DNA from: a virus
Lineage: Duplodnaviria > Caudoviricetes
Virus record (IMG/VR): IMGVR_UViG_3300027996_003878
DNA length: 64,000 nt
Reading direction: 5' to 3' (one strand)
Of this stretch, positions 1 to 18,920 are shown piece after piece (the first letter of the stretch is position 1; every line of letters begins with the position of its first letter). A program made the translations under genes and the position numbers. The notes under the pieces were generated by a model. The model had not been told where the DNA came from. It worked only from the letters and a program-made list of their open reading frames with translations, and searched no databases.

Positions 1-141
1 ACAGCCGGTTGGGAAGACTATGAAAAGAAGTATCTTAAACAAATTGAAGATGAAGGGTTTGACAGTATTAAGCTAGATGACGATTGGATAATATTCGAAC
101 CAAGCAGAGTTAAAGTAATTGAAATTGAAAAAAATTTTTAA
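1..141 (+). CDS. Partial CDS (3' end), possible ART-PolyVal-like C-terminus
   Basis: Frame 1 is open from the window edge to TAA at 139-141: ...LKQIEDEGFDSIKLDDDWIIFEPSRVKV, resembling the GYDGI...VVFDPxQIK ending of polyvalent-protein ART domains. Confidence 0.45.
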   Translation, partial: TAGWEDYEKKYLKQIEDEGFDSIKLDDDWIIFEPSRVKVIEIEKNF

Positions 142-149
142 AGGACATT

Positions 150-1205
150 ATGAAACGCCAAAACATACTTATAAATTCAATCAGTAAGCTTGCAAGTAAA
201 TTTTTGAAGCTTGCCAAGGCTCCCAGTGGAATTGTTACGTATCATGGTACAAATGCGCGGTTTTTGAATAATATGCTTCAAGAAGGAATTCTTTCAAAAG
301 TACCTCCAGGATCTTATCACAAAGACAAGGCAGTTTATCTAACGAATGACATAAGCCAGGCTGCAAGATACACTCTAAAAGAAGATTTACCCATGATTTT
401 AGAGCTGTATTTATCAACACCGAAGCGGTTAAAAAAAATAAAACATGATTTGCTTGATCGGTATGATTGGGGCGACTTTGAATCAGAATGGCAGGAAGAG
501 CTAATATATTTATCTAAAGATCTAAGTGAAGTTCTAGGAGGCTGGGAAAGAGAGATCGAACAAGCCCTTGTAACTGACAATGAGATTCATGAAATTATAG
601 GTATGAATGTTTACAAACTTATATTATCAATAGCAAGAGAAAATAATTTAAACATTCAAGATGTAAAAAATAAACTTAAAAAACTTCCAAAAAGTGATCC
701 AAATAATTTCTTTTTTTACATATCACATGATGGTACGCTCCAACCTACCAAATATTATTATGATTGGATGCACCAAATGAAGTATCCAACCACATTGCCT
801 CCTTCTGTTATAAAATATGTTTGGCTGCCTGAACGTAATTTAAAAAATGAGCATAAAAATAATGCGCTAAATGCCAATCAAATCTATAGCAACTATTTGC
901 CGGGCGATTTGGACCACATAAGAAGCTCCATAGAAAATGCATTTAAGGGTATCTATGGCACGGAGACGAGCGAGGAGGACAAAGAGCGCTTGTTAGTCGA
1001 TTTAAAAGATATAAATGATGATTTTAAAGATTCAACTAAAGAGCTGTTAGAGGAAGTTAAAGGCACGGCTCCTGAGGAATTGAGCGATATTGATTATTAT
1101 GAATTTATTCCTCAGGAAGGCGAGCAGGCTCTAAGCGACAATTACCTTAGATTTGACATTGATTATGTCAAATCTAAGGGAATAAGCTCAATGTTAAAAA
1201 GCTAG
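150..1205 (+). CDS. ADP-ribosyltransferase-like domain protein with N-terminal shared peptide
   Basis: YHGT...MLQEGIL...AVYLTNDISQAARY is an ART-fold pattern; preceded by ISKLASKFLKLAKA. Confidence 0.6.
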   Translation: MKRQNILINSISKLASKFLKLAKAPSGIVTYHGTNARFLNNMLQEGILSKVPPGSYHKDKAVYLTNDISQAARYTLKEDLPMILELYLSTPKRLKKIKHDLLDRYDWGDFESEWQEELIYLSKDLSEVLGGWEREIEQALVTDNEIHEIIGMNVYKLILSIARENNLNIQDVKNKLKKLPKSDPNNFFFYISHDGTLQPTKYYYDWMHQMKYPTTLPPSVIKYVWLPERNLKNEHKNNALNANQIYSNYLPGDLDHIRSSIENAFKGIYGTETSEEDKERLLVDLKDINDDFKDSTKELLEEVKGTAPEELSDIDYYEFIPQEGEQALSDNYLRFDIDYVKSKGISSMLKS

Positions 1206-1320
1206 TCTATAAAATTCAACAAATGATTAAGAATTAATAATACAAAGAAGAAGAATAATAGAGTTAACTTAAAAATCACATATATATACAAAAAAAAGTA
1301 TATTTCAAGAGGAAGAAAAA

Positions 1321-1971
1321 ATGAAAAAATCTTCAGTGAAAAAAATTGAAAGCAATAAAGTCCACAAGCTGGCGGTAAAATTTGAAAGAAAGATATTTAA
1401 AATATCCACTCAAGAGCAGATTAGAATTTATAGAGCACAGCCTGCTTGGACAACCGATCTAGAGTCGGATTCATATGTAACTAAATCAAGAAAATTTGCA
1501 CTTGATCACGCTATAACATCCTCATTATATAATGACACTGATTTTTGCATAATTATGGCGAAAGTTAACAAAGACCAAATTGAAGAGGCAAATAATCCTG
1601 GTGAATATATTTACAAGGGCGGCAAGATTAAGGCAATTCCAATTCAAGCCATTAACTCTGAGGGCGATGTGATGCCTTATTCAAAATGGTTGGAAAATGA
1701 TGAGGTTGTGCTTTATCATAGAACAAGCCCGGAAATTGCTGAAGAAATAAATAGAAGCGGAGAATTTAAATCAAAAATTAAAACAAACCTTGGAAAAGAG
1801 CTTTATTTCAGCAATCGTCGTGATGGGCAAATATCTGGATACGGAGAGGGGCTTGTAGTTGTAAAAATAAACAAAAAATATTTAAATTTAGATGATCAGT
1901 TTTCAAGTGGCGAAAAGCATTACATGATAACCTTGAATGATTTTAATAATTATGGAAAAGTAGTCAGTTAA
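1321..1971 (+). CDS. Tandem ART-like domain protein with N-terminal shared peptide
   Basis: Domain 1: IYRAQP...YVTKSRKFALDHA...GEYIY. Domain 2: LYHRTSPEIAEEI...LYFS...GYG...LDDQFSSGEKHY. N-terminus KVHKLAVKFERKI. Confidence 0.55.
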   Translation: MKKSSVKKIESNKVHKLAVKFERKIFKISTQEQIRIYRAQPAWTTDLESDSYVTKSRKFALDHAITSSLYNDTDFCIIMAKVNKDQIEEANNPGEYIYKGGKIKAIPIQAINSEGDVMPYSKWLENDEVVLYHRTSPEIAEEINRSGEFKSKIKTNLGKELYFSNRRDGQISGYGEGLVVVKINKKYLNLDDQFSSGEKHYMITLNDFNNYGKVVS

Positions 1972-2055
1972 TTTTATTTCCTTCGATAGGCGGGTAGATA
2001 ACCAGCAAGAATTATCATATTAAAATTTTAATTAACAAAGAATTATTTAAATAAT

Positions 2056-2298
2056 ATGAAGGTCAAGAGTAGAAGCACCTATAAACTTGACCTGCATGGG
2101 CTGACCTATGAAGAGGCTGAAGGGCAATGTCATAAGTTTATCAACAAATATTGGCTATCAAATTGTGAGGGGCAAATAATAACTGGTAATAGCATTTCTA
2201 TGAAAGAAGTTGTAATTAAAATTATTAACCAGTACAAATTAGACTTTCAAGTAGGCTCTTTGAACAATTTTGGAATTATTAGAGTTTGGTTTGAATGA
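2056..2298 (+). CDS. Stand-alone Smr/MutS2-domain protein
   Basis: LDLHG and IITG motifs of the Smr domain. Confidence 0.75.
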   Translation: MKVKSRSTYKLDLHGLTYEEAEGQCHKFINKYWLSNCEGQIITGNSISMKEVVIKIINQYKLDFQVGSLNNFGIIRVWFE

Positions 2299-2342
2299 TT
2301 AGCTATAATTTGTCATTATTTTTATAACCATAAGGATTTTAA

Positions 2343-2738
2343 ATGATTATCAATTGCAATAATATTCTAAATCTTTCAAATGTATTTTTTAAATTAGCAT
2401 CATCAAATGATGATGATGATGCTTTTGTATTAAATTTAAGTGAATATGACTTGAAGGCACTTGACCCTGATAAGCTAGAAGAGGGAAAGAAAGAATATAG
2501 AATAACGGTTACACCAGAAGAGTTAAGTCAATATTTGGAAAAATCGATGAGCGACAACAATTTGTCGCCTGTCGGCGTTCGAATTATGGAACAAGTCCCA
2601 GATCTAAAAGAATTTAATAAGCTTTTAGAAAAAGCAATAAGCAATAAAGAAGAAGAAAAGGAAAAAGCAAAAGACCTACTTTCGGAAGAGCTTAGCGATC
2701 AAGAGTTCCAAGAAAGCCTAAGAAAATTTTTATTTTAA
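2343..2738 (+). CDS. Hypothetical acidic protein with N-terminal shared peptide
   Basis: 131-aa ORF; ILNLSNVFFKLASS. Confidence 0.65.
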   Translation: MIINCNNILNLSNVFFKLASSNDDDDAFVLNLSEYDLKALDPDKLEEGKKEYRITVTPEELSQYLEKSMSDNNLSPVGVRIMEQVPDLKEFNKLLEKAISNKEEEKEKAKDLLSEELSDQEFQESLRKFLF

Positions 2739-2742
2739 GAAA

Positions 2743-2889
2743 ATGGTAAAACAATTAATAAAAGAAATTAAAAAGCGTCTTGTTGATTATTGGACTCTCA
2801 ACATTACAAGCGCTGATTTTGTAATAATAATGGTGGTTAAGTTAATATTTTTCTCTGCCGGATTCTTAACTTGCCATTTATTTTTTTAA
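2743..2889 (+). CDS. Small membrane protein (48 aa)
   Basis: Read manually: MVKQLIKEIKKRLVDYWTLNITSADFVIIMVVKLIFFSAGFLTCHLFF; one hydrophobic helix; fills the intergenic gap. Confidence 0.45.
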   Translation: MVKQLIKEIKKRLVDYWTLNITSADFVIIMVVKLIFFSAGFLTCHLFF

Positions 2890-2905
2890 TTTTTAAAGGG
2901 CCTTA

Positions 2906-3229
2906 ATGTATGAATACAAAGCGGTTGTAATTAAAGTTTATGATGGGGATACTGTAACAGTCGATGTTGATTTGGGGTGGTCGGTCGTGATTAAAAAACA
3001 AAAAATAAGATTACTAGGTATCAACGCGCCAGAGGTTAGAGGCAAGTCAAAGCAAGCAGGAAAAGAGTCTCGCGATAGACTTAAAGAAAAAATTCTAGAT
3101 CAAGAAATAACTCTTAAAACCTTTAAAGATAAGAAAGGTAAATACGGTAGATGGCTTGGTATAATTATACTAGATGATATGAATATTAATGATTGGATGG
3201 TTGAGAACAACCTTGCTGTAAAGTATTAA
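2906..3229 (+). CDS. Thermonuclease (SNase-like) family protein
   Basis: VYDGDTV, IRLLGINAPE and KYGRWLG motifs. Confidence 0.85.
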   Translation: MYEYKAVVIKVYDGDTVTVDVDLGWSVVIKKQKIRLLGINAPEVRGKSKQAGKESRDRLKEKILDQEITLKTFKDKKGKYGRWLGIIILDDMNINDWMVENNLAVKY

Positions 3230-3253
3230 ATTGTAATATTAAAACATTTATTT

Positions 3254-3631
3254 GTGATGAATAAAAGATTAGATCAAGCAGCACATAAAATCAATTTAAA
3301 GCTCACAAAAAGAGCCCAGGACCTTTTTTCTGAATTCAAAAAAACCGTTGATAGGCGCGGTAGTGACGAATATGACTTTAGTAATGGATTTAGCGCCTTA
3401 GTGACACGTCCATTCAAAGGGACATCCCTTGAAAAAGAGCTAAAGGGCATCTACGAGCTAGAAATATTTTCAAATGGCGACAAATGCAATGACAATGACT
3501 GCGAAGTAATAAAAGAAAATGTAATAACACCATTTTTAGAAAAATCAACTGATCCAACTGTTTATAAATTGCAATATTTAGACTGGAATGAAGTATCAAA
3601 GCTTCTTCTTTCAATACAAAGTCAAGATTAA
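3254..3631 (+). CDS. Hypothetical protein with a variant of the shared peptide
   Basis: 125-aa ORF; LDQAAHKINLKLTKRAQ. Confidence 0.6.
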   Translation: MMNKRLDQAAHKINLKLTKRAQDLFSEFKKTVDRRGSDEYDFSNGFSALVTRPFKGTSLEKELKGIYELEIFSNGDKCNDNDCEVIKENVITPFLEKSTDPTVYKLQYLDWNEVSKLLLSIQSQD

Positions 3632-3648
3632 AAAGATTAAAGGCACAT

Positions 3649-4314
3649 ATGTATAGTTTTGATAAGTTTTTAAAAAAATTACAAGAAGACACTCCTAAAT
3701 TTAATATTAAATATAAGAATGAATCTAAATTCATGAAATTTTTAGGCGCTTTGTTATTTTTCAACAAAGGCTTTATGACAAAGTACGTAACTACCATTGG
3801 CAGTACTGTATATTATCCTGATAAATTATTTATTGAAAAGGAGAAGGTGGCTATAGAAATTTTAGCTCATGAGTTTGTTCATACAAAAGATTCTAACAAA
3901 TCATTTTCGTTTAGTCCTTTGTATCTTTTTCCCCAAATTTTAGCACCTTTTATGTTGTTTTTTATGTTTGCTTCAATTTGGCTGGGTTTGGGTTTATTTG
4001 TTCTTTTCATATTACCATTACCGGCGCCTTTTAGAATGCATTATGAGGTACGGGGTTATACAATGTCTCTTTTTATGATAAATAAATTTTTGGTTGATCA
4101 AAATAAAGACCAGGAAGAGAGAAGAAAAGTTTTATATGATATCGCAGGCAATATAAATAAAAACTTTACCTCATTTGCTTATTACTTAATGTGGCCATTT
4201 GGTGTCACCAAAAAATTAAAACAAAATATTGACAAAATAGTAAGTAATAAAATTTTAGAAGAAGACCAAAATTATAAGTTAGCCGAAGTCGCGTTTAATT
4301 ATTGCAAAGAGTAA
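3649..4314 (+). CDS. Membrane-associated HExxH (zincin-like) protein
   Basis: ILAHEFVH, a hydrophobic segment, then a downstream E in HYEVRGY. Confidence 0.6.
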   Translation: MYSFDKFLKKLQEDTPKFNIKYKNESKFMKFLGALLFFNKGFMTKYVTTIGSTVYYPDKLFIEKEKVAIEILAHEFVHTKDSNKSFSFSPLYLFPQILAPFMLFFMFASIWLGLGLFVLFILPLPAPFRMHYEVRGYTMSLFMINKFLVDQNKDQEERRKVLYDIAGNINKNFTSFAYYLMWPFGVTKKLKQNIDKIVSNKILEEDQNYKLAEVAFNYCKE

Positions 4315-4317
4315 TCT

Positions 4318-4761
4318 TTAAAGGTTATCTAGGCTGTCTTCAACATCTTCAATGCAACCTGCAATGCATTCGGTAAAGCCGTCCGGTCCTCCCAGACAGC
4401 TTTCCTTATACTTAACCTCATCTTTGACACAAGATTCCGTTATATTAAAACACTGTCTAATTTTTTGGGCGCAAGAGTTAGCCATGTCGCCACATGCATT
4501 TCTGCAATCATCTTCACTGGCACATGTATACATCTCTTCGCACCCTTGGCAGGAATGATTGCAGCTATTGGCATTATCAAAGCACTTTTCTAAATCATTA
4601 AAGCATTGATCGCCTTCAGGGCACTTATGCTCGGCTCCTAAGCATAAATTATTTATTTCATTACATTCCCTTATACAGCCTGAAGTATCGGGAAAGCTTA
4701 AATTAAAAGAACATCCGGTAGTTAATATAATATAAATAGTAAGAATTTTTTTTATATTCAT
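4318..4761 (-). CDS. Cys-rich putative lipoprotein
   Basis: Signal peptide with lipobox-like TTGC; numerous CxxxC repeats. Confidence 0.65.
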   Translation of the reverse strand: MNIKKILTIYIILTTGCSFNLSFPDTSGCIRECNEINNLCLGAEHKCPEGDQCFNDLEKCFDNANSCNHSCQGCEEMYTCASEDDCRNACGDMANSCAQKIRQCFNITESCVKDEVKYKESCLGGPDGFTECIAGCIEDVEDSLDNL

Positions 4762-4892
4762 AGATCCTTATTTTTTTTGAGTTTTTACCTTCTTACCTTA
4801 ATAATTTGTGATTTATAAAAAACAATCACTCGATAAAAAATAATATTAAACAATTGTTATATTTAATATTGGGGCTTTAAATAAAAAAAATT

Positions 4893-6002
4893 ATGTTATA
4901 TAAAAATTTAATCTGGCTATTAATTATTATTTCTTTTGCTATAAATTGCGCTTCTGGGGGCGAAGAAGGTGAAAATCTTCAGTCAGAGAGCGCGGGAGGG
5001 AATTCGGGAGCAAGTGAGCCTGGGTTTTATTTTGAGGACCCGGATGAGGAGCCGCCTCCTTTGATATCAGAAGTTGACGATCTTTGCTTTGTAGAAAAGA
5101 TTGAAAGCACTTTAGCTAATTATGACATCATCATATTGCTTGATAGATCCGGCAGCATGGATTCCCCTTACAGATGGCAGGTTGTTATAAATTCTCTAAA
5201 TATTTTTTTTGAAAACAAGCAATCCGAAGGACTAAATATTGGATTGAACTTCTTCCCTCCAGAGCCCATATATGACGAAAATTTAATTATAAAATATGAA
5301 AAAGATCAATGTGATCCAAATAGCTATTCTCCAACTCATGTGCCACTTGACTCACTTCCACAGCATGTCAGCACTTTAAAAGATGCATTGCTTAATGCGT
5401 CACCTGAGGGAGACGCAACTCCCTTGTACGGAGCACTACAAGGCACCTATTTGGCATCAAAGACGCTTAAATCAGCTAGTACAAATGATTCTATTGTAAT
5501 TTTAGCAACAGATGGGATGCCTTCCGCATGCAATACTTCGTATTTAGAAATAACTAAACTTGCGGATGATGCTTATAAAAATGATAACATAAAAACGTAT
5601 GTGATTGGCCTATCAGGCTCCGACTTTTCACTTTTGAATGGAATTGCTTTTGTTGGAGGTACAGAGAACGCCTTTGATATCAGCTCTAACAGCACATTAT
5701 TTTTAGATAAAATGAAAGAAATAAGAAATAGCTTTAAGTGTCAATACAAAGTGTTAGATGATAATTTAGATCTTGCTAGCGGGATAGTTGAATATCACTC
5801 TAGCATTGGCTTTCCCGACTGGTCCATCCCACAAGTAGAAAAAAAATCTGATTGTCATAATACTATGGGTTGGTATTATGACATCAGCTCAAAGCCTTAT
5901 GCGATAGTGTTGTGCGATCAAGTTTGCGATTTAGTAACTAGCGATCCAAATCCTGAAATATACATTGGGTTTCAATGTTTAGAGAGCGATAATTTAAAAT
6001 AA
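4893..6002 (+). CDS. vWA-domain putative lipoprotein, myxobacterial type
   Basis: Lipobox-like AINC; MIDAS DRSGSM, TP and LATDG; KTYVIG; Cys-rich tail GWYYD...IVLCDQVC. Confidence 0.8.
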   Translation: MLYKNLIWLLIIISFAINCASGGEEGENLQSESAGGNSGASEPGFYFEDPDEEPPPLISEVDDLCFVEKIESTLANYDIIILLDRSGSMDSPYRWQVVINSLNIFFENKQSEGLNIGLNFFPPEPIYDENLIIKYEKDQCDPNSYSPTHVPLDSLPQHVSTLKDALLNASPEGDATPLYGALQGTYLASKTLKSASTNDSIVILATDGMPSACNTSYLEITKLADDAYKNDNIKTYVIGLSGSDFSLLNGIAFVGGTENAFDISSNSTLFLDKMKEIRNSFKCQYKVLDDNLDLASGIVEYHSSIGFPDWSIPQVEKKSDCHNTMGWYYDISSKPYAIVLCDQVCDLVTSDPNPEIYIGFQCLESDNLK

Positions 6003-6071
6003 AAGAAGAACAATCGATAGTCAGTACATTTATTTAAAATAAAGGCTTATAAGGATATTTTTATATCTATT

Positions 6072-8996
6072 TTGAAACACTTAAGTCTGATTTTTATTAT
6101 GAATGATTACAAAAAAGATAGCGCTGCGATTCAGTTAAAGAAAAAAATCTCTGCATCAAGAAAGCATGCGATAGAGCTTCATGCAGTAAGTCCCTATAAC
6201 TTTACAAAAGTTGCAGACATCATTGATAGCCTGTCAAAGGCATGGAATTGGATAACAGATCCAGAATTTAGATTGGATTTAAAAAAACTAAATGTAAAAA
6301 CTGTAAAAACTGAGAAGTTAATTAAAGAATTAAAAGATAAAACCAATACTTTACTCAGAGCAATTGATGCTGGCAATTTAGTCGGCTATGACAGCGCCCT
6401 TAAAGAGGTTAAACGTCTATCTACTGAACTAAACCGAGCGACATCTGAGGCCCAATCTATACAAAGAAATATGGGCGAAACGGTTATTGATGAAGTAGAG
6501 CAAAGGTACACAGAAACAAAACCAGTTGATAAGGCTGAACCAAAAAAACCAAAACCAAAGACAAAGCCAAAGACAACGCCAAAGACAAAGGCAAGAGCGC
6601 CCTCAGCGCCGCCTAAGGAGCGCGGGGAGGAGCGCGGGGAGGAGAACGGCGAGAGCATCACCCAAGAGCCAAAGAAGCCCTCAGAGGCGCCAGAGCCACC
6701 TGCAAAGACGGATAAGGAGTCTCCCCAAGAGGAGCAAGATAGCGCAAGTTTAATTCAAGCTATAGATCGTCAAATTGAATCGCTAAAAGAGCCAGAGATA
6801 GTACCTGAAACTAAGCAAAAAATAACAAGAAATTTAAGAAAGAAAATATTAGGACTTTATGCGTTAACTCAAAGAGGTGAGCGTGGCGAAGCTACGGCTG
6901 CTGAAAACGTTCTAAAGACTATCTTGCAAAAGATTAAAACAGAAGATCAGGACATACCACTTCTCGGAAGTTCGATTCCATCTTATGAAGACTTTTTAAA
7001 CCGAGCGCCTTTTTACTTATCGAAAATGCCCGCTCCAGAAAGTGATATCGAAGGAAAGCCTGAGTCCAAAGAAGAGGCCAAAAAGGAGCCGATCAAAAAA
7101 AGAAGAATCGTTCAGCTGCCCATGCCGCCGGAAGAAGCGACAAAAGAGCTTGAGCTGGTGGAAGAAAAAACAATTAAAGAGAACTCTAATGATGGTAATG
7201 TCGAGCTTATAGAGGATGCCTTGAGCAATATTAGTGTTGCCCAGCCGGAAGGTATGTTTGATAATTTTGCAAGCGGACTTAGCGGTAAAGGTTTAAAAGG
7301 AATTAGAGTTATTGGAAATAAACTTATAGGAGACGCAGAAGATCCAAATACGAAAGATCCTATGAGTAGAGGTAAAGATTTAGATGATTACGAAGATTTT
7401 TCAAACAAATCAAGCGGCATTGGATTTGACTACATACTATACTCACCGAAAGGCAACGTAAATAAATTCAATGTTGTGCCATTTTCAAAAAAAGCTATAA
7501 AAATATTGGGAGAGCTGAAAGGACTGGAGAAACTTCAACCATCGGCGGCTTTGGTCATTGAAAAAGAGTTACAGAAAAAAAGCCCAACAAAAGTATCAGA
7601 AAAACCGTCTCAAGAAAAAGAAACCGCTTTTGATGAAGGCAATTACGAAGAACCCGAAGAAGTTGTATTAAAAGACAAAAGTAAAAAAGAAAAAGCTCTT
7701 ACAGAAAAGATAAAGCAAGAATTTGATGACAAAGGCTTAGATGTTCCAGATTGGTTGCTAGATTCTATGAGAATGAGTTCAAAAGTCACAAAGCCATACT
7801 TCCCAACGACTTATAACTTAAATTATTTGATTTTTAAAGCTGAAAAAGATTTTTTTACAGATAAAATACAGAGTGAATTTGATGTCAACAATGCAGACAT
7901 GCCGTCACTGCTTGAACCACTTAACCCAGGCACATCCGTTAACACCAAGGCTAAAGAAAGCGAGTCAGAGGACACTCAAGACGAAGATTCGGCGGAAGAG
8001 TTAAGTGAGGGAAAAGTAAGAAAACAAATGAGAGGCTTGTATTTTAGCAAAGGTAAGACAAAGCAAGATTTTTCAACTACAAAAGAGGATATCAGAAAAC
8101 TTCGTGATGTCGGCATCACTGATGCTGACATTTATAATTTTAAAAAAATACCAGCAAAATCATCGCCTGCATCGGTTCCATATGCAAAAAGATCGGGTGA
8201 AATATATAAATGGGTAGCAAAAACAAAAGCAACAATGTCGGATGCGGAACTTGAGCTAATATTAGATAATGTAAAATCAGAAATATTAAAAGATTCAGAA
8301 AAATATCCAGAATTTAAAGGCCTTAATAGAGAAGCTTTAGATAAGCAGGGCTGGCTGTCTCATTATATAATTAAATCTATAAGAGAAGATCTTCCGATTC
8401 ATTGGAAAGGTAAAGATCAAAACATTGTAAGCGCACAATGGATTTATGGTCTAGCTAATATCTTTTTAAAATTGGCAATGCCCAGATTAAAAGTTGCAGG
8501 CGACAAAAATAAGGCGTCCGAAGCCGATTATATGTATCACGTTACCTACTACAAGGATCTTGGATCCATAGCAGACTCGGGATTGAACCCAGGGGGCGGC
8601 TCCGCTATGGGAAAGGGAGGGCACTCCGGACATAGCCGGGGGCGCACCTTTATGACCGAAAAGGACGGCCTTTCCTTCTGGTTCGGCAGAATGGAAGAAC
8701 ACGCGGAGGCCGACAGCGACGATCCGCTGGGCGAAGGATACGTTCCGGTCTCACTACGGTTCCCGAAGCCCAAGGGCCTGGAGGAGGACGAGGCCGGAAC
8801 CTCCGACGCAATGGCAGAATCTTACTTTCTCGAAGGTTCGGTTCCTCCTGGCGAGGTCGAACTCTGGGATGGTAATTCCTGGATCGCGCTAACCTCCTGG
8901 GAGAGCGTGAACCCGGAGGAATCCTTCGACGTGGACGAGTACGACGGGGAGAAATGGCACATCTTCAAGGGTGATAACCCTCTTTATCCCGGTTAG
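6072..8996 (+). CDS. Large low-complexity protein with C-terminal ART-like module (likely start ATG 6099)
   Basis: 974-aa ORF with K/E/P-rich linkers; C-terminal YHVTYYKDLGSIADSGLNP preceded by IYGLANIFLKLA. Confidence 0.65.
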   Translation: MKHLSLIFIMNDYKKDSAAIQLKKKISASRKHAIELHAVSPYNFTKVADIIDSLSKAWNWITDPEFRLDLKKLNVKTVKTEKLIKELKDKTNTLLRAIDAGNLVGYDSALKEVKRLSTELNRATSEAQSIQRNMGETVIDEVEQRYTETKPVDKAEPKKPKPKTKPKTTPKTKARAPSAPPKERGEERGEENGESITQEPKKPSEAPEPPAKTDKESPQEEQDSASLIQAIDRQIESLKEPEIVPETKQKITRNLRKKILGLYALTQRGERGEATAAENVLKTILQKIKTEDQDIPLLGSSIPSYEDFLNRAPFYLSKMPAPESDIEGKPESKEEAKKEPIKKRRIVQLPMPPEEATKELELVEEKTIKENSNDGNVELIEDALSNISVAQPEGMFDNFASGLSGKGLKGIRVIGNKLIGDAEDPNTKDPMSRGKDLDDYEDFSNKSSGIGFDYILYSPKGNVNKFNVVPFSKKAIKILGELKGLEKLQPSAALVIEKELQKKSPTKVSEKPSQEKETAFDEGNYEEPEEVVLKDKSKKEKALTEKIKQEFDDKGLDVPDWLLDSMRMSSKVTKPYFPTTYNLNYLIFKAEKDFFTDKIQSEFDVNNADMPSLLEPLNPGTSVNTKAKESESEDTQDEDSAEELSEGKVRKQMRGLYFSKGKTKQDFSTTKEDIRKLRDVGITDADIYNFKKIPAKSSPASVPYAKRSGEIYKWVAKTKATMSDAELELILDNVKSEILKDSEKYPEFKGLNREALDKQGWLSHYIIKSIREDLPIHWKGKDQNIVSAQWIYGLANIFLKLAMPRLKVAGDKNKASEADYMYHVTYYKDLGSIADSGLNPGGGSAMGKGGHSGHSRGRTFMTEKDGLSFWFGRMEEHAEADSDDPLGEGYVPVSLRFPKPKGLEEDEAGTSDAMAESYFLEGSVPPGEVELWDGNSWIALTSWESVNPEESFDVDEYDGEKWHIFKGDNPLYPG
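6555..6652 (+). repeat. In-frame 12-bp tandem repeats in a linker
   Basis: CCAAAGACAA(A/C)G x3 at 6555-6590; GGAGCGCGGGGA x2 plus a degenerate copy at 6617-6652. Confidence 0.8.
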
Positions 8997-9300: not shown

Positions 9301-10173
9301 TCATTGGCAATTTTTTGCGTCACTGTACCCACGATCAATCATTTTACTAATATCACTAGAGTCAAAATTAAACAGATCGTCATTTAACGAAACGCTTGGC
9401 CTAATAATTCGTATTTTTATATCGCTATACTTACTTACAACTAAATCATTGTCCAAGCCAATTGAATGAAAGTCAGCTGCCATAATTCTATCGGTCATTA
9501 AGTCTAAGCTACGATAAGCAATATCTAAAACTGACCACCATCTCCCAGAAGGACGCCACTCTTTTGTATAAGAATTACCGGGAGAGCATGAAATTACATC
9601 AATATATTTGGCCCCAAGCCTTATTGCCTGACCAATTGGCGTACTAACTTTTATTCCACCATCAATCCACCACTTACCATTGATTATTTTCGGCTTCATA
9701 ATAACAGGCAAGCTTGCTGAAGCTACCGCCCATTCATCAAGATTAAAATCATTTTCACTAGAAAAATATTTTTCTCCAGTATTTAGACAAACAGCTCCAA
9801 TTCTAACATTTTTATTAGAATTTCTTATTTTCTCTATATCAAAGTCTGACTTTATTAACTTTATTAGCGGGCTTGAGTCAAATATAGACCATTTCCATAG
9901 CGCAGATATTTTTCCAAAAGGCTTCCAACCGCAAAATATTCTGGAAACTGTCAAGTCATGCCAAATATTATATAAATTATCATAAGCTTCAGAAGAATCA
10001 CCCAAGGGAATTGCGGCAAGCTTTAAAGCATTTAAAGCGCCAACGCTCACACCACATAAAATGTCGTAATCTAAGCCGTCCTCTTTAAGCCATTTTTTTA
10101 AAACGCCAACTTGGTAGGCGCCCTTTATACCTCCACCAGAAAGGACCAATGCTCGCTTGTTAGATTCTTTCAT
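9301..10173 (-). CDS. Patatin-like phospholipase
   Basis: GGGIKG oxyanion motif, GVSVG nucleophile and DGG catalytic Asp. Confidence 0.9.
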   Translation of the reverse strand: MKESNKRALVLSGGGIKGAYQVGVLKKWLKEDGLDYDILCGVSVGALNALKLAAIPLGDSSEAYDNLYNIWHDLTVSRIFCGWKPFGKISALWKWSIFDSSPLIKLIKSDFDIEKIRNSNKNVRIGAVCLNTGEKYFSSENDFNLDEWAVASASLPVIMKPKIINGKWWIDGGIKVSTPIGQAIRLGAKYIDVISCSPGNSYTKEWRPSGRWWSVLDIAYRSLDLMTDRIMAADFHSIGLDNDLVVSKYSDIKIRIIRPSVSLNDDLFNFDSSDISKMIDRGYSDAKNCQ

Positions 10174-10236
10174 TAAAGTAAAAAAAATGATGCATATAAC
10201 TATATAGCATCATTTTAATTTTTTTTACTTTAAAGT

Positions 10237-10551
10237 TTATTTCGCGTCTGTCATCTGCGCCACTGTCTTTTTAAATTCATCGTTGTCTCTCAGCCACTTG
10301 TAAACTTTTCTTAAAATTTCTGCATTTTTATTATCAGATGTGCTTAAATTTGAAGCCGACTCAGGCTCACAATTATCGCACCAATGCATGATAAATATTT
10401 TAAATTCAAAAAGGTTAGAAGAATCTCTGGTTGCCGGCATATTGCATACCATGCACTTGGGCTTGATCTTTTCTAAATTGATCAACAGCTCATTTTCATA
10501 TGATTCGTTTTTTTTTGCCAGTTCTAGTATTGATTCAAGTTTCTTTAACAT
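10237..10551 (-). CDS. Hypothetical protein with CxxC...CxxC zinc finger
   Basis: CMVC and CDNC. Confidence 0.6.
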   Translation of the reverse strand: MLKKLESILELAKKNESYENELLINLEKIKPKCMVCNMPATRDSSNLFEFKIFIMHWCDNCEPESASNLSTSDNKNAEILRKVYKWLRDNDEFKKTVAQMTDAK

Positions 10552-10694
10552 TAATTAAATTTAATTTTATTATTAGAATAATATTGAATTTAATTAATCT
10601 ATAAAGAAATAACTTTAGTGAATCTTAAATATCTATACTTATAATTCCAAAGCCCAGCGCAGTTATATCATTTTCCGCCGTCAATCACCAACTT

Positions 10695-10889
10695 TCATTG
10701 TTCACCATCATCAATCTCGCCATCAATGCTAACAAGAAACTCTTTGCCGTCTTGTCCCCAAACCATCTCACACTCGTTATTATGGAGATGTTGTGCAAGT
10801 TCTTCGTGTTCCTTTTCAAGATATTCCACGATTGCTTGTTTTAACTCATCTGCCGTGAGGTAGATTGTTTTGAGTGATGTAGTTTTCAT
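10695..10889 (-). CDS. Hypothetical protein
   Basis: 64-aa ORF with plausible start and acidic composition. Confidence 0.55.
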   Translation of the reverse strand: MKTTSLKTIYLTADELKQAIVEYLEKEHEELAQHLHNNECEMVWGQDGKEFLVSIDGEIDDGEQ

Positions 10890-10970
10890 TCTTTATTCTC
10901 CAACCAACTTTGTAATGTGCTCGCAAAACTCTAAAATCATTTCAGTTCTTTTTTGAGTTCTTTGATTTTG

Positions 10971-11448
10971 TCAGCCATTTTCTTTCTCCTCACAGGTACA
11001 TTCTTGGTCTGGATAACCGGCATCGTGATGAGCACAGTTATACCACTTTGAGTTATCAAATTGATAATGCCCGTCAAGAACTTTCATTTCTAAATGCAGG
11101 TCTTCATAGTTCTCAACATAACCACCGCTAGTTCGTCCATCCAGTCGGTTCAGAAGGTTGATTGATGCTTCGCCTGCCCATAGGTCATCTTCGTTCTTCT
11201 GAGGAAAAGCATTACCTTCAACAAAATCAATAATAATGCTGTCTAAATCTCTAATCTCATCTGCTGCTCTGCGACAAAGAGATTTCAAGCGAATGATTTC
11301 TTTTTTTAACTCTCGCTGATAATCAAGTCGCTCTTGTGGAACACCAGTATCAAGAAAATTATGAACTGATAACTCTCGTTGTAGTTCTGTATTCTCTTTT
11401 TTTGAGTTCTTCTACTTGCTTTTTGAGTTCTTTGATTTCGTTAGTCAT
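10971..11448 (-). pseudogene. Coiled-coil protein interrupted by a +1 frameshift in an A7 run (or a sequencing error)
   Basis: ATG at 11448 gives MTNEIKELKKQVEELKK; removing one A at 11397-11403 continues as ENTELQRELSVHNF...IIRLKSLCRRAADE into ORF 10971..11288. Confidence 0.6.
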
Positions 11449-11460
11449 TCTCTTCTCTCT

Positions 11461-11492
11461 CAAAAAGGTGTTAGGCAACCAGACCACCTAAC
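11461..11492 (-). terminator. Possible intrinsic terminator or attenuator upstream of the 11448 ORF
   Basis: GTTAGGT-loop-GCCTAAC followed by ACCTTTTTG. Confidence 0.4.
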
Positions 11493-11579
11493 TGACTGTT
11501 TCCAGTCCCACCCGCAGATTAGCAATCATGGAGTTTATCCCTCTCCCGCTTCATCCTTACAATCGGGGTAACTTCATTT

Positions 11580-11697
11580 GAAGGAGTGGCAGGATTTTCA
11601 CCTGCAAGCGACCAAGTGTTCCCTTGTAAGATTCTTATTCCTTGGTCCGGGTCGTGTATCATCTCAGTAGAACCCTGCGTAATGCCGCCTCACTCCT
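11580..11697 (-). ncRNA. tRNA-like structured RNA candidate (not a canonical tRNA)
   Basis: 7-bp closing stem AGGAGTG/CACTCCT stacked on a T-arm GCAGG-TGAAAAT-CCTGC; internal stems GGGTT/GACCC and GACCAAG/CTTGGTC; no canonical anticodon loop and no CCA. Confidence 0.5.
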
Positions 11698-11716
11698 AGA
11701 ATCAATATAAGTCGCT

Positions 11717-11971
11717 TTATTTTTCTTTCAAGCCTTTTCGGCAAAGGTAATTTTTATGAAAGTCGAAATCATCTGAATAATCTTTTTCTATTGAGTTAGT
11801 ACTTGGGGTGAAAAAAAATACGGGGGGAAATAAATCACCCTTATCAAAACTTCTAGCTGAAAAATTTTCGATATTATTAATATATCTTTCACTTCTTTGT
11901 TTATGCCACGGATCAGTTCTTGGTAAAGTTGCAAAAAAAATTAAAGACATATATATAAAAAATATTTTCAT
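11717..11971 (-). CDS. Hypothetical secreted or membrane protein
   Basis: 84-aa ORF with a hydrophobic N-terminus. Confidence 0.45.
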   Translation of the reverse strand: MKIFFIYMSLIFFATLPRTDPWHKQRSERYINNIENFSARSFDKGDLFPPVFFFTPSTNSIEKDYSDDFDFHKNYLCRKGLKEK

Positions 11972-11997
11972 GCAAATATATTTTTAAATGCGTAATT

Positions 11998-12420
11998 TTA
12001 AAATATATACTCCCAGTTAAGATAAACATTTGGAGACAAACCAAATGTTTTTTGAAACTTACTAACGCTTGATGGATATTCGAAGTCCTTGAAGTTACAA
12101 ACCATCAATAACTCAATTTCTTTTTTTAATTTATTTTCACAAATATTTGCAGGTGCAGAGGTTATCTCAAACGAATAAGGAAAAGCCGCCCTCTGATCAA
12201 GCACATCACTTATTACATTCGCATTACTTAAGATAGCAGAGATTTCAATTTTAAAATCATTAAGACGAAAAGAGGGGTACGTAGAGGAGATATAATCAGA
12301 AATAATTTTGTAAATTTTATCTAAATTAATTAGATCGTTAGAAATTAACGTATCACCTTTAATGGTAAAATTTATGCAATCGACTTCTAGTCGCATTCTG
12401 TAATGTACGTCATCAAACAT
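11998..12420 (-). CDS. Hypothetical protein
   Basis: 140-aa ORF in a run of - strand genes. Confidence 0.6.
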   Translation of the reverse strand: MFDDVHYRMRLEVDCINFTIKGDTLISNDLINLDKIYKIISDYISSTYPSFRLNDFKIEISAILSNANVISDVLDQRAAFPYSFEITSAPANICENKLKKEIELLMVCNFKDFEYPSSVSKFQKTFGLSPNVYLNWEYIF

Positions 12421-12839
12421 TTCATTTTTATCCTTTCAAAATCATCTCTATCAATAAATATATTCATCTTTTTTGCCAAAATCAAGGCCTTACGCCAAGC
12501 TGCAAATTCCTCGTCTAGAGTAATAATATTTTCAAAACTGTTTTTCTTTTTTATTTTTTTCTCACAAAATCTATGTTGATAAACATAATCATAGTAAGTT
12601 CCTCGCGCAACTAAAATATGCCCAATTTCGTGCAGCAAGCAATAAACTTTATTCTTTGCAGATCTTCTTTTGTTTATAAAGATATGATTTAAATCTAAAG
12701 AAACAAAATCAGTTATATTATATTTTTCAGTAACTTTCCAATTGTATTTTTTACAATACTTAATCAGTTTTTTATATTGAAATTCGTAATATTCGTTAGA
12801 TCCAATTTTAAGCCGTCCCATATGAATCCGATTATTCAA
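12387..12839 (-). CDS. ImmA/IrrE-like HExxH metallopeptidase-domain protein
   Basis: LLHEIGH and downstream EEFAAW. Confidence 0.7.
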   Translation of the reverse strand: MNNRIHMGRLKIGSNEYYEFQYKKLIKYCKKYNWKVTEKYNITDFVSLDLNHIFINKRRSAKNKVYCLLHEIGHILVARGTYYDYVYQHRFCEKKIKKKNSFENIITLDEEFAAWRKALILAKKMNIFIDRDDFERIKMKCLMTYITECD

Positions 12840-15262: not shown

Positions 15263-16498
15263 ATGGAAGATCGTTGGACAGATATCGTGCGCCCGTATTC
15301 TTTGGAAGATGTTAAAAGAATACGAGGCAGTATAAGAATAGACCAAACTTGGGCAAAATTAGCTTCAGAAAAACTTTGGCGTTTGATGAAGCAAAACGCC
15401 CCAGTTCGCGCACTTGGCGCAATGACTGGAAACCAAGCGATACAGCAAGTGCGCGCTGGCCTTAAGGCAATTTATGTAAGTGGCTGGCAGACGGCAGCGG
15501 ATGCAAATAGTGGTCGTCAGATGTACCCAGATCAAAGCTTATATCCTGTAAATGCTGTCCCATTGCTGATTGAAAGAATTAATAATGCACTTCAAAGATC
15601 AGACGAAATAGACGTCGCAGAAGAAAAATCAGACATTGATTGGCTTGTGCCACTTGTGGCGGATGCAGAGGCCGGATTCGGCGGTGTATTAAATGCATAC
15701 GAATTAATGAAATCAATGATTAAAGCGGGCGCTGCGGGCGTTCACTTTGAAGATCAATTAAGCAGCGAAAAAAAATGTGGTCATCTAAATTCCAAAACTT
15801 TAGTGCCTACGTCTAGCTTCATTAGAACCCTAACTGCTGCAAGATTAGCCGCAGATGTTTTAGAGGTTCCTACGGTTTTGATTGCAAGAACAGATGCAGA
15901 AAGCGCTGGATTTATAACTAGCGACGTAGACCCCCGCGATCATGATTTTATTGACAAATCAGAAAGAACTCCTGAAGGTTTTTTTAAGTTATGTGGAGAT
16001 CCTATGGAAAGATGCATACGAAGGGGACTTGCTTACGCACCCTACTCAGATCTAATTTGGATGGAAACATCCACTCCTAACCTAGGGCAGGCTAAAAAAT
16101 TTGCAGATGCAATTCATGAAAAATACCCAAATAAAAAATTAGCATACAATTGCAGTCCAAGCTTTCATTGGAAGAAATTCTTATCCTCCAACGAAATGAA
16201 AGACTTTCAAACGGAACTTGGAAAATTAAATTATACTTTTCAATTTATAACTTTAGCAGGTTTTCATGCCTTAAACTTTAGCATGTTTGAGTTAAGTCAG
16301 AATTATAAAAATAGCGAAATGTTGGGGTATTCTTCTTTGCAGGAAAAAGAATTTGAAGCCTATTCGCAGGGATACACCGCAATAAGGCACCAACATGAAG
16401 TTGGCGTTTCCTATTTTGATGAAGTTCGCAAGGTTATAAATGGTGGAGATGATAGCATGTCTGCTCTTACCGGCAGCACCGAAGACGACCAATTTTAA
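15263..16498 (+). CDS. aceA: Isocitrate lyase
   Basis: [14 protein letters not shown] catalytic motif; [31 protein letters not shown]. Confidence 0.97.
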
Positions 16499-17324: not shown

Positions 17325-18920
17325 ATGAATAAAATATTATTTCCAGAATTAAAAAACGAAAACGAGAAAAAAATACTTTCTCCAGAAGCGCTTAACTTTC
17401 TAAAAGATTTATTTAATGAGTTTAATGGCAAAATAAAAAATTTATTAAAGCTAAGAGTTCGAGATGCTAAATTAATTTCAGATGGTCAGCTGCCAAATTT
17501 TCTAGAAGAGACAGAGGGTATTAGAAATTCCACTTGGCAAATCTCTTCGGTACCAAAAGACCTTCAAGATCGTAGAGTAGAAATTACAGGTCCGGTTGGA
17601 AGAAAAATCATAATTAACGCCCTTAACTCTGGCGCTAATGTTTTCATGGCTGATTTTGAAGATTCAAACTCACCGACCTGGAAAAACACTTTAGATGGAC
17701 AGATAAATCTCTTTGATGCTGTAAGAGAAGAAATAAGTTTATTTGATAAAGTAAAAAATAAAGAATATAAATTAAATAAAGATCACGCAACCTTGATGGT
17801 AAGACCTCGTGGCCTTCACTTACTTGAAAAAAATATTCTCATAGAAGACGAACCAATCCACGGCTCTTTAGTTGATTTTGGCTTGTACTTTTTTCACAAC
17901 GCACAAGAGCTTTTAGACAAAGGCTCCGGGCCTTACTTTTACTTACCAAAAATAGAGCACTTTAGAGAAGCTGCTCTATGGAATGAAGTATTTAATTTCT
18001 CACAAGATAAGTTAAATATTAAAAGAGGTACAATAAAAGCTACTGTTTTAATCGAAACTTTACCAGCTGCATTTCAGATGAATGAAATATTGTATCAGCT
18101 TAAAGATCATTCCGCCGGGCTGAACTGTGGAAGATGGGATTACATTTTTAGTTTTATAAAAACGCTAAAAGATCACGAGCAATTTACCCTTCCAAATCGA
18201 AGTGATTTGACAATGGATAAGCATTTTATGAGATCTTATACGCAATTGTTGATTCAAACATGTCACAAAAGAAAAGCACACGCTATGGGCGGCATGTCTG
18301 CATTTATACCAATTAAAAACGATGAAATGGCAAATAACGCTGCATTAGATGCCGTGAAAAAAGACAAAATGCGCGAAGTAAAAGACGGTCATGATGGAAC
18401 ATGGGTTGCGCACCCTGGATTAGTTGAAATGACAAGAAAAATCTTTGACGAGTACATGCCGACAAAGAATCAAATCAATAATAAAAGAGAAGACGTAAGC
18501 ATAACTGCAAATGATTTACTTCAAACCCCTCAAGGCGAGAGAACTGAAGATGATATTAGAAAAAATATAAACGTGTCATTGCAGTATATAAATTCCTGGC
18601 TATCAGGGACTGGCTGCGTTCCCATTAACAATTTAATGGAAGACGCAGCGACCGTTGAAATATCTAGAGCGTTAATATGGCAATGGATAAAATTTAAGGT
18701 AAAAACCGACAGCGGTATAATTGTAAGTAAAGAAAAAATTCAAAAATTACTGCTTGACGAAGTCGCCAAATTAAAAACAGATAAAAATATCAAAGAAAAC
18801 AACGAGACATTTAAAAAAGCAATTGAAATATTCTCAAATGTTTCAATGAATACAAGTAATTTTAATAATTTCCTAACAACCGATGCTTATGAAGAGCTAA
18901 TCAAAATATCCCAAACATGA
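17325..18920 (+). CDS. aceB: Malate synthase A
   Basis: RRVEITGP, VFMADFED, GLNCGRWDYIFS, DGTWVAHP, LMEDAAT. Confidence 0.97.
   Translation: MNKILFPELKNENEKKILSPEALNFLKDLFNEFNGKIKNLLKLRVRDAKLISDGQLPNFLEETEGIRNSTWQISSVPKDLQDRRVEITGPVGRKIIINALNSGANVFMADFEDSNSPTWKNTLDGQINLFDAVREEISLFDKVKNKEYKLNKDHATLMVRPRGLHLLEKNILIEDEPIHGSLVDFGLYFFHNAQELLDKGSGPYFYLPKIEHFREAALWNEVFNFSQDKLNIKRGTIKATVLIETLPAAFQMNEILYQLKDHSAGLNCGRWDYIFSFIKTLKDHEQFTLPNRSDLTMDKHFMRSYTQLLIQTCHKRKAHAMGGMSAFIPIKNDEMANNAALDAVKKDKMREVKDGHDGTWVAHPGLVEMTRKIFDEYMPTKNQINNKREDVSITANDLLQTPQGERTEDDIRKNINVSLQYINSWLSGTGCVPINNLMEDAATVEISRALIWQWIKFKVKTDSGIIVSKEKIQKLLLDEVAKLKTDKNIKENNETFKKAIEIFSNVSMNTSNFNNFLTTDAYEELIKISQT

Follow-up and report, generated by a model that had tools for sequence, protein, structure and literature searches.

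Known phage ADP-ribosyltransferases and the present cluster

Bacteriophage T4 loads diverse internal proteins, together with the ADP-ribosyltransferase (ART) Alt, into the core of its head by means of a propeptide of 10–19 residues, the capsid targeting sequence (CTS), which is removed by gp21 (PMC5694885, PMC9026906, PMC3012670). Among the protein-modifying domains that occur in polyvalent proteins, ARTs are also the most frequent, and there they are of the H-Y-D type (Iyer et al. 2017, PMC5512222). They are present in more than 40% of jumbo phages, with at least 10 in phage G, and about 44% of phage ARTs lie in contexts suggesting packaging in the head (Iyer et al. 2022, PMC9503650). Here we describe a cluster of ART-like genes in the first 9 kb of a 64,000-nucleotide stretch of phage DNA (IMG/VR record IMGVR_UViG_3300027996_003878, Caudoviricetes), referred to below as the window. 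At least four ART-like proteins with five domains, claimed in a preliminary description of this DNA, are found at the positions given in Table 1: a 119-residue protein truncated by the start of the window (ART1), and the products of three complete open reading frames (ORFs), ORF150, ORF1321, which carries two tandem domains termed A and B, and ORF6072, with one domain at its C terminus. Each of the five domains is ART-like, though not all are equally well supported. The ART fold is supported by structure prediction for two of them, by Pfam matches below threshold for another two, and by weak convergent signals for the last one.

We consider it reasonably probable (about 0.6) that these genes encode ART effectors of the polyvalent-protein kind, unbundled from one another, tagged by a leader for capsid loading and processing, and acting early in the next host. 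The first 9 kb would then contain ART-fold effector domains which belong to the repertoire of polyvalent proteins in large phages and are here split into separate genes. The leader would act like the T4 CTS, binding each protein to the core of the assembling head, and the head protease would then remove it; in ORF6072, cleavage at an internal copy of the leader would free the C-terminal domain. Carried along with the DNA into the next host cell, the enzymes would act as soon as infection begins, modifying proteins or nucleic acids of the host by means of NAD+. If true, the phage brings a set of several different NAD+-using enzymes with it on entry.

Compared with T4 Alt and the internal proteins IPI–III, the cluster has in common a set of diverse effectors that share only a short leader; Alt itself is an ART that contains a long non-catalytic part, undergoes processing at its ends, and is injected with the DNA. 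In contrast to T4, the window encodes at least five ART-type domains belonging to at least four families, versus one packaged ART, and no sequence similarity of its proteins to Alt, ModA, or ModB was found. The leader also differs from the CTS, being longer, ending in K-x-A rather than [LI]-x-E, and capable of an internal position. The resemblance to polyvalent proteins (PMC5512222) lies in the presence of ART1-like domains and of domains A and B inside multi-domain proteins of 1,000–3,600 residues that carry above-threshold ART-PolyVal (Tox-ART-HYD2) domains and are predicted to be injected early as host modifiers. The window genes, on the other hand, are separate, encoding proteins of 119–351 residues and one of 974 residues, each with one or two recognisable domains, and thus fall outside the definition of a polyvalent protein; moreover, domain A is of the R-S-E type, unlike the H-Y-D type described there. 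As in multi-ART jumbo phages such as Bacillus phage G, many divergent ART genes are present in one jumbo phage, although here delivery with the head is suggested by a leader peptide rather than by a fusion to MuF or portal proteins or by a neighbourhood of head genes.

Since T4 Alt, polyvalent proteins, and the many ARTs of phage G are already known or predicted, the gain is one of breadth and of a testable packaging signal, not of a new principle. What sets the cluster apart is the unbundled, leader-tagged state of its genes, two minimal families of ~90 residues absent from Pfam, the R-S-E type in polyvalent-like proteins, and a putative leader signal with an ending other than Glu.

The preliminary description had also proposed a diversified arsenal for host takeover or anti-defence, by reference to Alt, ModA, and ModB from T4 as well as DarT. 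The idea of an arsenal fits the occurrence of the domains in polyvalent effectors of other huge phages, the presence of two catalytic clades (R-S-E and H-Y-E/D), and the leader resembling a capsid-targeting sequence, whereas a sequence link to the T4 enzymes or to DarT was not found. The likeness to these proteins, drawn by analogy, is functional and not a family relationship. Searches with single proteins against the PDB by sequence found no ART, and Pfam models of the ADPrib_exo_Tox type did not match any window protein at E-values up to 1–10. The structural match lists contain other R-S-E toxins and no structure of Alt, an absence which in itself does not exclude a family.

ART-like domains of the four proteins

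ORF1321 is the strongest case of the cluster: its predicted structures firmly place an R-S-E-type domain next to an H-[Y/F]-E-type domain, both with ART folds. An exhaustive search of cluster representatives gave 376 relatives at E-values up to 1e-3, which form two non-overlapping families, one covering residues ~28–120 (domain A) and the other residues ~125–215 (domain B). Many of these matches lie inside proteins of 1,000–3,600 residues, the largest having 3,603, and a natural A–B tandem is also found in a protein of 2,663 residues (P0126). No Pfam model matches either family, and a comparison of the two profiles with each other was not significant. Under every option tried for the whole protein, MAFFT stacked fragments of A and B; the two domains were folded separately, yielding AlphaFold2 (AF2) models with a predicted local distance difference test (pLDDT) score of 90.9 for domain A and 88.0 for domain B.

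Foldseek, which the preliminary description had suggested as a check, ranked ART folds first for both domains. The first matches of domain A were TreX/TreTu, pertussis S1, and cholera A1, with TreX the best (E 0.014, TMq 0.60), and VIA alignment of the Foldseek candidates gave Z scores of 7.9 for TreX (86 residues, 2.7 Å), 7.2 for pertussis S1, and 7.1 for LT-IIB. For domain B, Tpt1, CNFy domain 4, TreTu, PARP16, and RhsP2 came first, the best match being Tpt1 (8tfi, E 3.9e-3), and the corresponding Z scores were 8.0 for diphtheria toxin (86 residues, 3.0 Å), 6.8 for Tpt1, and 6.7 for TreTu. In an exhaustive VIA search, independent of the Foldseek candidates, all 48,161 PDB representatives were aligned with each model. 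At Z values of at least 4, the rows again consisted almost exclusively of ART-superfamily chains, with top values of 7.7–7.8 over 87 residues: TreX (7.7), pertussis S1 (6.9), and TreTu (6.9) for domain A, and diphtheria toxin (7.8), TreTu (6.6), RhsP2 (6.2), and KptA (6.1) for domain B, where 50 of 50 rows were ART-superfamily folds. By sequence profile, the sole PDB match of domain B was Tpt1, which was not significant (E 0.4), and domain A had none. The ART assignment of the two domains is firm because of the uniform match lists, the near-full coverage, and the placement of the motifs, and not because of any single Z score.

The positions expected to be catalytic are strictly conserved. Among 45 homologues of domain A (alignment A2), Arg18, Thr34, His43, Asn72, and Glu75 are invariant, and Ser36 is present in at least 90% of rows. 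In the model, Arg18 lies in strand 13–21, Thr34 and Ser36 at the end of strand 32–34, before helix 37–51, and Glu75 at the start of strand 75–78. This predicted placement agrees with the features of the R-S-E clade, namely an Arg in strand 1, a motif similar to S-T-S ending strand 2, and a Glu following the ADP-ribosylating turn-turn (ARTT) loop. Among 49 homologues of domain B (alignment A3), His15, Thr17, Gly57, Asp74, and Glu80 are invariant, Ser46 is found in at least 90%, and the aromatic position is occupied by Tyr or Phe. In the model, His15 is located in strand 10–17, Ser46 at the end of strand 40–46, and Glu80 before strand 81–86, a placement that is canonical for the H-Y-[EDQ] clade with its His in strand 1, aromatic-x-Ser/Thr in strand 2, and acidic residue in strand 5. 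With domains A and B, two compact and widespread ART families are added to the catalogue, and their small size would ease biochemical and structural studies of how targets are recognised.

Two minor observations concern domain A. Chain B of PDB entry 9k3a, which is a cyanophage A4 pre-ejectosome protein, shows a weak alignment with the domain A model (Z 4.5); if true, 9k3a would represent a solved ART-like fold within a virion ejection protein. In the flanks of alignment A2, the peptide L-G-K-S-L or G-G-K-R-L is conserved ~10–15 residues upstream of the domain in many of its homologues in large proteins, and may be a linker or a processing motif of other phage lineages.

The Rhs/T6SS toxins TreX and TreTu, the pertussis and cholera A subunits, the catalytic domain of diphtheria toxin, and Tpt1/KptA are the best structural matches of domains A and B and cover almost the whole of each domain. 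The phage domains differ from them in being smaller (~90 residues), in sharing only 8–20% identity, and in having no delivery, receptor-binding, or immunity partners. A fold in common with toxins or with Tpt1 does not show a common target.

The family of ART1 comprises 67 homologues of ~119 residues from marine metagenomes, one of which carries a precomputed PF18760 (ART-PolyVal) annotation, and is characterized by the motifs AYHGS, WFSEDK, and LDDDW-IF. Tyr22, His23, Gly24, Trp43, Phe44, and Asp99 are invariant, and no invariant Glu is present at the third catalytic position; the invariant pattern, including the Asp, fits the H-Y-D configuration of ART-PolyVal (PMC5512222). Domains similar to ART1 stand beside above-threshold ART-PolyVal domains in two of the relatives discussed below (L019 and L025). 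In ORF150, three weak matches that belong to one superfamily, namely Pfam PARP, Pfam ART-PolyVal, and PHROG 5470 (RNA 2'-phosphotransferase, E 0.005), all fall on the YHGT...VYLT region, the two Pfam ones within residues 14–123, and weak homologues of this domain adjoin or sit inside the polyvalent ORFs of L019 and L016. Judged from sequence, ART1 and ORF150 are best read as divergent relatives of ART-PolyVal and not as members by the curated rule, and the assignment as an ART may be made with moderate confidence for both ART1 and the N-terminal part of ORF150.

It is very improbable that the domains are catalytically dead ART-fold binding modules, of the kind of CNFy domain 4 or IcmQ, or else modules of exclusion or toxin–antitoxin toxins. 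Non-catalytic CNFy domain 4, IcmQ, and the TASOR pseudo-PARP do appear among the structural matches, and the lack of an invariant third-position Glu in the ART1 family would suit such a role. Opposed to it are the R-S-E and H-x-S-E residues, invariant across 45–49 diverse homologues, and the invariant Asp of ART1, in keeping with the H-Y-D signature of ART-PolyVal (PMC5512222). As to toxin modules, no antitoxin or immunity-like partner was found, and PADLOC gave no match to a defence system, its only rows being two non-significant SIR2 matches to one homologue.

ORF6072 consists of a long N-terminal part, mostly of low confidence and rich in Lys, Glu, and Pro, an internal leader, and the C-terminal ART-like domain. 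The 26 homologues of this last domain are either free-standing (157–203 residues) or parts of proteins of 283–310 residues with another N-terminal domain; none of them has a Pfam annotation, and PHROGs were uninformative for the family. The conserved core reads LYHVTY..L..IA..GL.PG ... G..F.T ... PVVLR ... D..G..DA. Against the PDB, the best match of the profile was Tpt1, on the YHxT..L..I..GL motif and not significant (E 0.29), and weak Pfam matches among family members were to DUF7002 (four), PTS_2-RNA (two), and Tox-ART-HYE1 (one). When the homologue P0003 was compared by language-model features (Atlas), 44 of its top 100 matches were to Arr-ms, and a DarT/PARP cluster was also indicated. 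The ESM Atlas model of the 965-residue protein (mean pLDDT 0.42) has as its neighbours DarT (residues 706–964), DUF952 (residues 807–963, TM-score 0.57 by row), and Tpt1. Four weak signals converge in this way, and the C-terminal domain quite probably has an ART fold.

Several of these matches bear on what the domains might act upon. Some or all of them could be enzymes other than protein ADP-ribosyltransferases: RNA 2'-phosphotransferases of the Tpt1/KptA kind engaged in RNA repair, DNA modifiers similar to DarT, or NADases acting on NAD+ or on defence signals derived from it. Domain B and the C terminus of ORF6072 have Tpt1/KptA among their best matches by structure and by sequence, DarT and DUF952 are among the Atlas neighbours of ORF6072, the NADases Tne2, RES, and MbcT occur in the structural match lists, and both the H-Y-[EDQ] and the R-S-E clades include NADases (PMC9503650). 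Domains A and B, in turn, have only ~90 residues and are devoid of the N-terminal RNA lobe of Tpt1, the triad of domain A is R-S-E, as in toxins that modify proteins and nucleic acids, and the relatives lie in polyvalent proteins, which are predicted modifiers of macromolecules (PMC5512222). We find such substrates improbable; they would change the target only and are compatible with packaging.

Table 1. Positions and content of the ART cluster, of the leader-bearing proteins of the window, and of related loci in other phages
Sequence	Feature	Position	Strand	Content or basis
Window	ART1 (P0002), C-terminal part	1..141	+	last 46 codons and stop; full 119-aa single-domain ORF from identical contigs, L001:4490-4849
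Window	ORF150, 351 aa	150..1205	+	leader, ART-like domain (YHGT ... VYLT), then ~225 C-terminal residues without assignment
Window	ORF150 leader, residues 10-24	177..221	+	SISKLASKFLKLAKA; two h-x-K-x-A motifs
Window	ORF150 ART-like domain, residues 28-123	231..518	+	sub-threshold Pfam matches
Window	ORF1321, 216 aa	1321..1971	+	leader, then two different tandem domains with predicted ART fold
Window	ORF1321 leader, residues 13-27	1357..1401	+	KVHKLAVKFERKIFK
Window	ORF1321 domain A, ~90 aa	1417..1677	+	R-S-E type (IYRA ... YVTxS ... FAxDHA ... NPGEY); AF2 model, structure searches, alignment A2
Window	ORF1321 domain B, ~90 aa	1702..1968	+	H-[Y/F]-E type (LYHRT ... YFSN ... GYG ... GEKHY); AF2 model, structure searches, alignment A3
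Window	ORF2343, 131 aa	2343..2738	+	acidic, no recognised domain; leader at residues 7-21 (nt 2361-2405)
Window	ORF6072, 974 aa from TTG	6072..8996	+	gene callers: ATG at 6099, 965 aa
Window	ORF6072 internal leader/linker, residues 790-810	8439..8501	+	WIYGLANIFLKLAMP then RLKVAG
Window	ORF6072 probable ART-fold domain, residues 820-974	8529..8993	+	YHVT ... L-SI ... GL-PGGG ... GR-F-T ... PVxLR ... DE-GT-DA
Window	ORF13594	13594-13941	+	small protein, no recognised domain; leader NINKLANIFLLKTAA
Window	ORF25627	25627-26154	+	small protein, no recognised domain; leader KIHKIAQSFKVSLGS
Window	ORF32642	32642-33067	+	small protein, no recognised domain; leader KIFSIARCFERKIAQ
L019	1,998-aa ORF			ART1, above-threshold ART-PolyVal (41 bits), domain B
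L024	1,546-aa ORF			ART1, domain A
L025	2,562-aa ORF			ART-PolyVal (65.5 bits), ART1
L027 (144-kb viral contig)	896-aa ORF	9977-12664		ART1-like (residues 7-108) and nucleoside 2-deoxyribosyltransferase-like domain (PF15891, E 4.9e-30)
L008	adjacent genes			ART1, domain A, domain A variant
L023	adjacent genes			ART1, domain A

Leader peptide and relatives in other phages

The leader, I-x-K-L-A-x-x-F-x-K-x-A, has ~15 residues and is strongly amphipathic. The preliminary description had noted a peptide common to the three complete ORFs, and it is indeed found in all of them, with the qualification that in ORF6072 it is internal (residues 790–804) and not N-terminal. A nine-residue pattern, derived post hoc, occurs five times in the window compared with 0.02 expected in shuffled sequences, and h-x-K-x-A occurs 11 times within the first 35 residues of 73 window genes, compared with 3.7 ± 1.9 in shuffles (maximum 9 in 300). 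The leader can be aligned on seven window proteins (ORF150, ORF1321, ORF2343, ORF6072, ORF13594, ORF25627, and ORF32642), that is, on three of the four ART proteins of the cluster and on at least four non-ART proteins; as with the CTS, it is shared by proteins that are otherwise unrelated. Since the coding DNA diverges between copies, it is at the protein level that the leader is conserved. In the homologues of the ORF6072 C-terminal domain, a [KRH]-[VL]-A-G peptide precedes the domain, being N-terminal in the free-standing ones of 175–200 residues and internal in the long ones. By analogy, we take the window leader to be a counterpart of the T4 CTS with a different ending.

Scanning IMG/VR with the ART1 alignment gave 21 loci, located on contigs of up to 467 kb, whose ORFs were scanned with hidden Markov models of the four families and with Pfam. 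In several of them, domains that are separate in the window are fused in one large ORF or encoded by adjacent genes (Table 1), and a protein of 965 residues (P0054) combines ART-PolyVal with domain A. Because they are fused within polyvalent proteins of other huge phages, the separate genes of the window can be seen as modules of one functional class.

One of these loci, L008, provides a parallel to the window in a T4-type relative. Its record is that of a 178,630-bp IMG/VR phage, 98% complete (CheckV), which encodes a prohead protease of the T4 type (PF03420, 99.8 bits). Eight consecutive genes at ~89,045–92,940 on the minus strand (L034/L037/L040) start with (M)K-x-LLTEWRKFL-x-E; they encode a GNAT protein, a two-part X+ART1 protein with ART1 at its end, two R-S-E-type domains, namely domain A and a variant of it, a YYHVT...AYFFGT protein, and three unknowns. 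WRKFL-x-E occurs seven times in this record, on one strand and within 3.3 kb, and is absent from the control. The leader LLTEWRKFL-x-E resembles MKTYQEFIAE in following the pattern aromatic-x-x-F-[IL]-x-E, the start of T4 IPII and IPIII being MKTYQEFIAEA (T4 record). In metagenomes, free-standing homologues of ART1 and of domains A and B frequently begin likewise, or with forms such as MKTFRQFLYEA. The leader DNA of the relative is nearly identical between neighbouring genes, and could also serve cassette exchange by recombination.

Several results weigh against the reading of the cluster as packaged, leader-tagged ART effectors. As far as the fold is concerned, all structural Z scores are at most 8.0, a range which, as the tool itself warns, can reflect a mere common arrangement. 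ART1 and ORF150 match ART-PolyVal with 24.1 bits (E 6.8e-5) and 24.0 bits (E 7e-5), respectively, under the gathering threshold of 31.2 bits, and the match of ORF150 to PARP (PF00644, residues 14–77) reaches 24.4 bits (E 2.4e-5), under a threshold of 26.7 bits. Comparison of the five domain families by hhalign revealed no significant link, so that they are not joinable by sequence, which also concerns the C terminus of ORF6072. With respect to packaging, the K-x-A form of the leader is absent from ART1, and within the window no head genes adjoin the cluster, whose neighbours are accessory genes (staphylococcal nuclease, Smr-like, VWA, patatin, and peptidoglycan enzymes). Furthermore, the cleavage sites of the head proteases known from T4, phiKZ, and SPN3US all follow a Glu (PMC5694885), and cleavage after Ala at K-x-A would therefore represent a different, new specificity.

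The two points on packaging drawn from ART1 and from the gene neighbourhood would equally be expected if the proteins were real ART-fold enzymes made in the infected cell, like T4 ModA and ModB, and never packaged, with the peptide serving as an amphipathic helix that binds a membrane or a partner, as a tag for degradation or regulation, or as a recombination handle for cassette exchange. The strong amphipathicity of the leader would suit the first of these roles, and the near-identical leader DNA between neighbours in the T4-type relative favours the last. In the window, on the contrary, the leader DNA is divergent, as expected of a peptide maintained for its protein sequence. In ORF6072 and in its homologues of 280–310 residues, the peptide lies between two parts of the protein, a position more in line with a processing site than with an anchor at the N terminus, and the relative with a leader close to the T4 CTS also has a T4-type head protease. 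We regard enzymes confined to the infected cell as unlikely, if less so than the two alternatives described above.

The reading as packaged effectors can be extended, with rather more doubt than belief. In large phages of different lineages, a portable leader code specific to each lineage might load unbundled polyvalent domains into the capsid, its ending matched to the head protease of the phage concerned, with L-x-E for the T4 type and K-x-A for the present jumbo phage, which is phage-G-like. Part of the cargo would be two minimal ART families of ~90 residues that are absent from Pfam, one of them R-S-E, a type that had not been recognised in polyvalent proteins before, and ORF1321 would be a combined R-S-E and H-Y-E unit directed at two different host targets. 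If a leader of this kind does mark injected proteins, it would make it simple to spot phage effectors by sequence in uncultured genomes, in which the majority of these genes are without annotation.

Source phage and neighbouring genes

The source is an uncultured phage, and the GC content of the window is low, 30–46%. An exact copy of the ORF150 protein is found on 23 public contigs, part of them in the 0.2–1 Mb class, and the neighbouring 119-residue ART1 is present on a contig of 296,258 bp; on these grounds, the source is a marine jumbo phage of wide distribution. Exact-DNA searches of IMG/VR and of the JGI metagenome collection, aimed at its head genes, found nothing. A megablast search of the deposited phages with the 9 kb gave no match, nor did tblastn of the four proteins against deposited phage genomes at E-value limits of 1e-2 or 1e-3, and a search for relatives in IMG/VR with ORF150 alone yielded none. 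Other genes of the window encode an intein-containing ribonucleotide reductase, helicases of the DnaB and UvsW types, a TubZ-like tubulin, isocitrate lyase and malate synthase, and GDP-sugar enzymes.

Some of the proteins encoded beside the ART genes may be further effector modules. These are an Smr-like protein of 80 residues (2056-2298, plus strand; E 7e-5, under the cut-off), a staphylococcal-nuclease-like protein of 107 residues (2906-3229, plus strand), which is above the cut-off and also matches the middle of a PHROG profile of 2,317 positions, and a patatin-like phospholipase (9301-10173, minus strand). A protein of 221 residues (3649-4314, plus strand), with no Pfam or PHROG match, contains the zinc-peptidase motif HEFVH (HExxH) and a long hydrophobic stretch. 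It is followed by a divergent gene pair that encodes a Cys-rich protein of 147 residues with a lipoprotein-like signal (4318-4761, minus strand) and a VWA-domain protein of 369 residues with a signal peptide followed by Cys (4893-6002, plus strand). Both products look exported, which is unusual within a phage effector region.

Farther from the cluster, the tubulin (57392-58795, minus strand) is similar to TubZ/PhuZ (Tubulin, E 1.1e-17, with a TubZ-like C-terminal domain); the relative of this phage has a T4-type head. The genes for isocitrate lyase (15263-16498, plus strand; E 5.7e-101) and malate synthase (17325-18920, plus strand; E 5.8e-114) lie two genes apart and together constitute a complete, phage-borne glyoxylate shunt.

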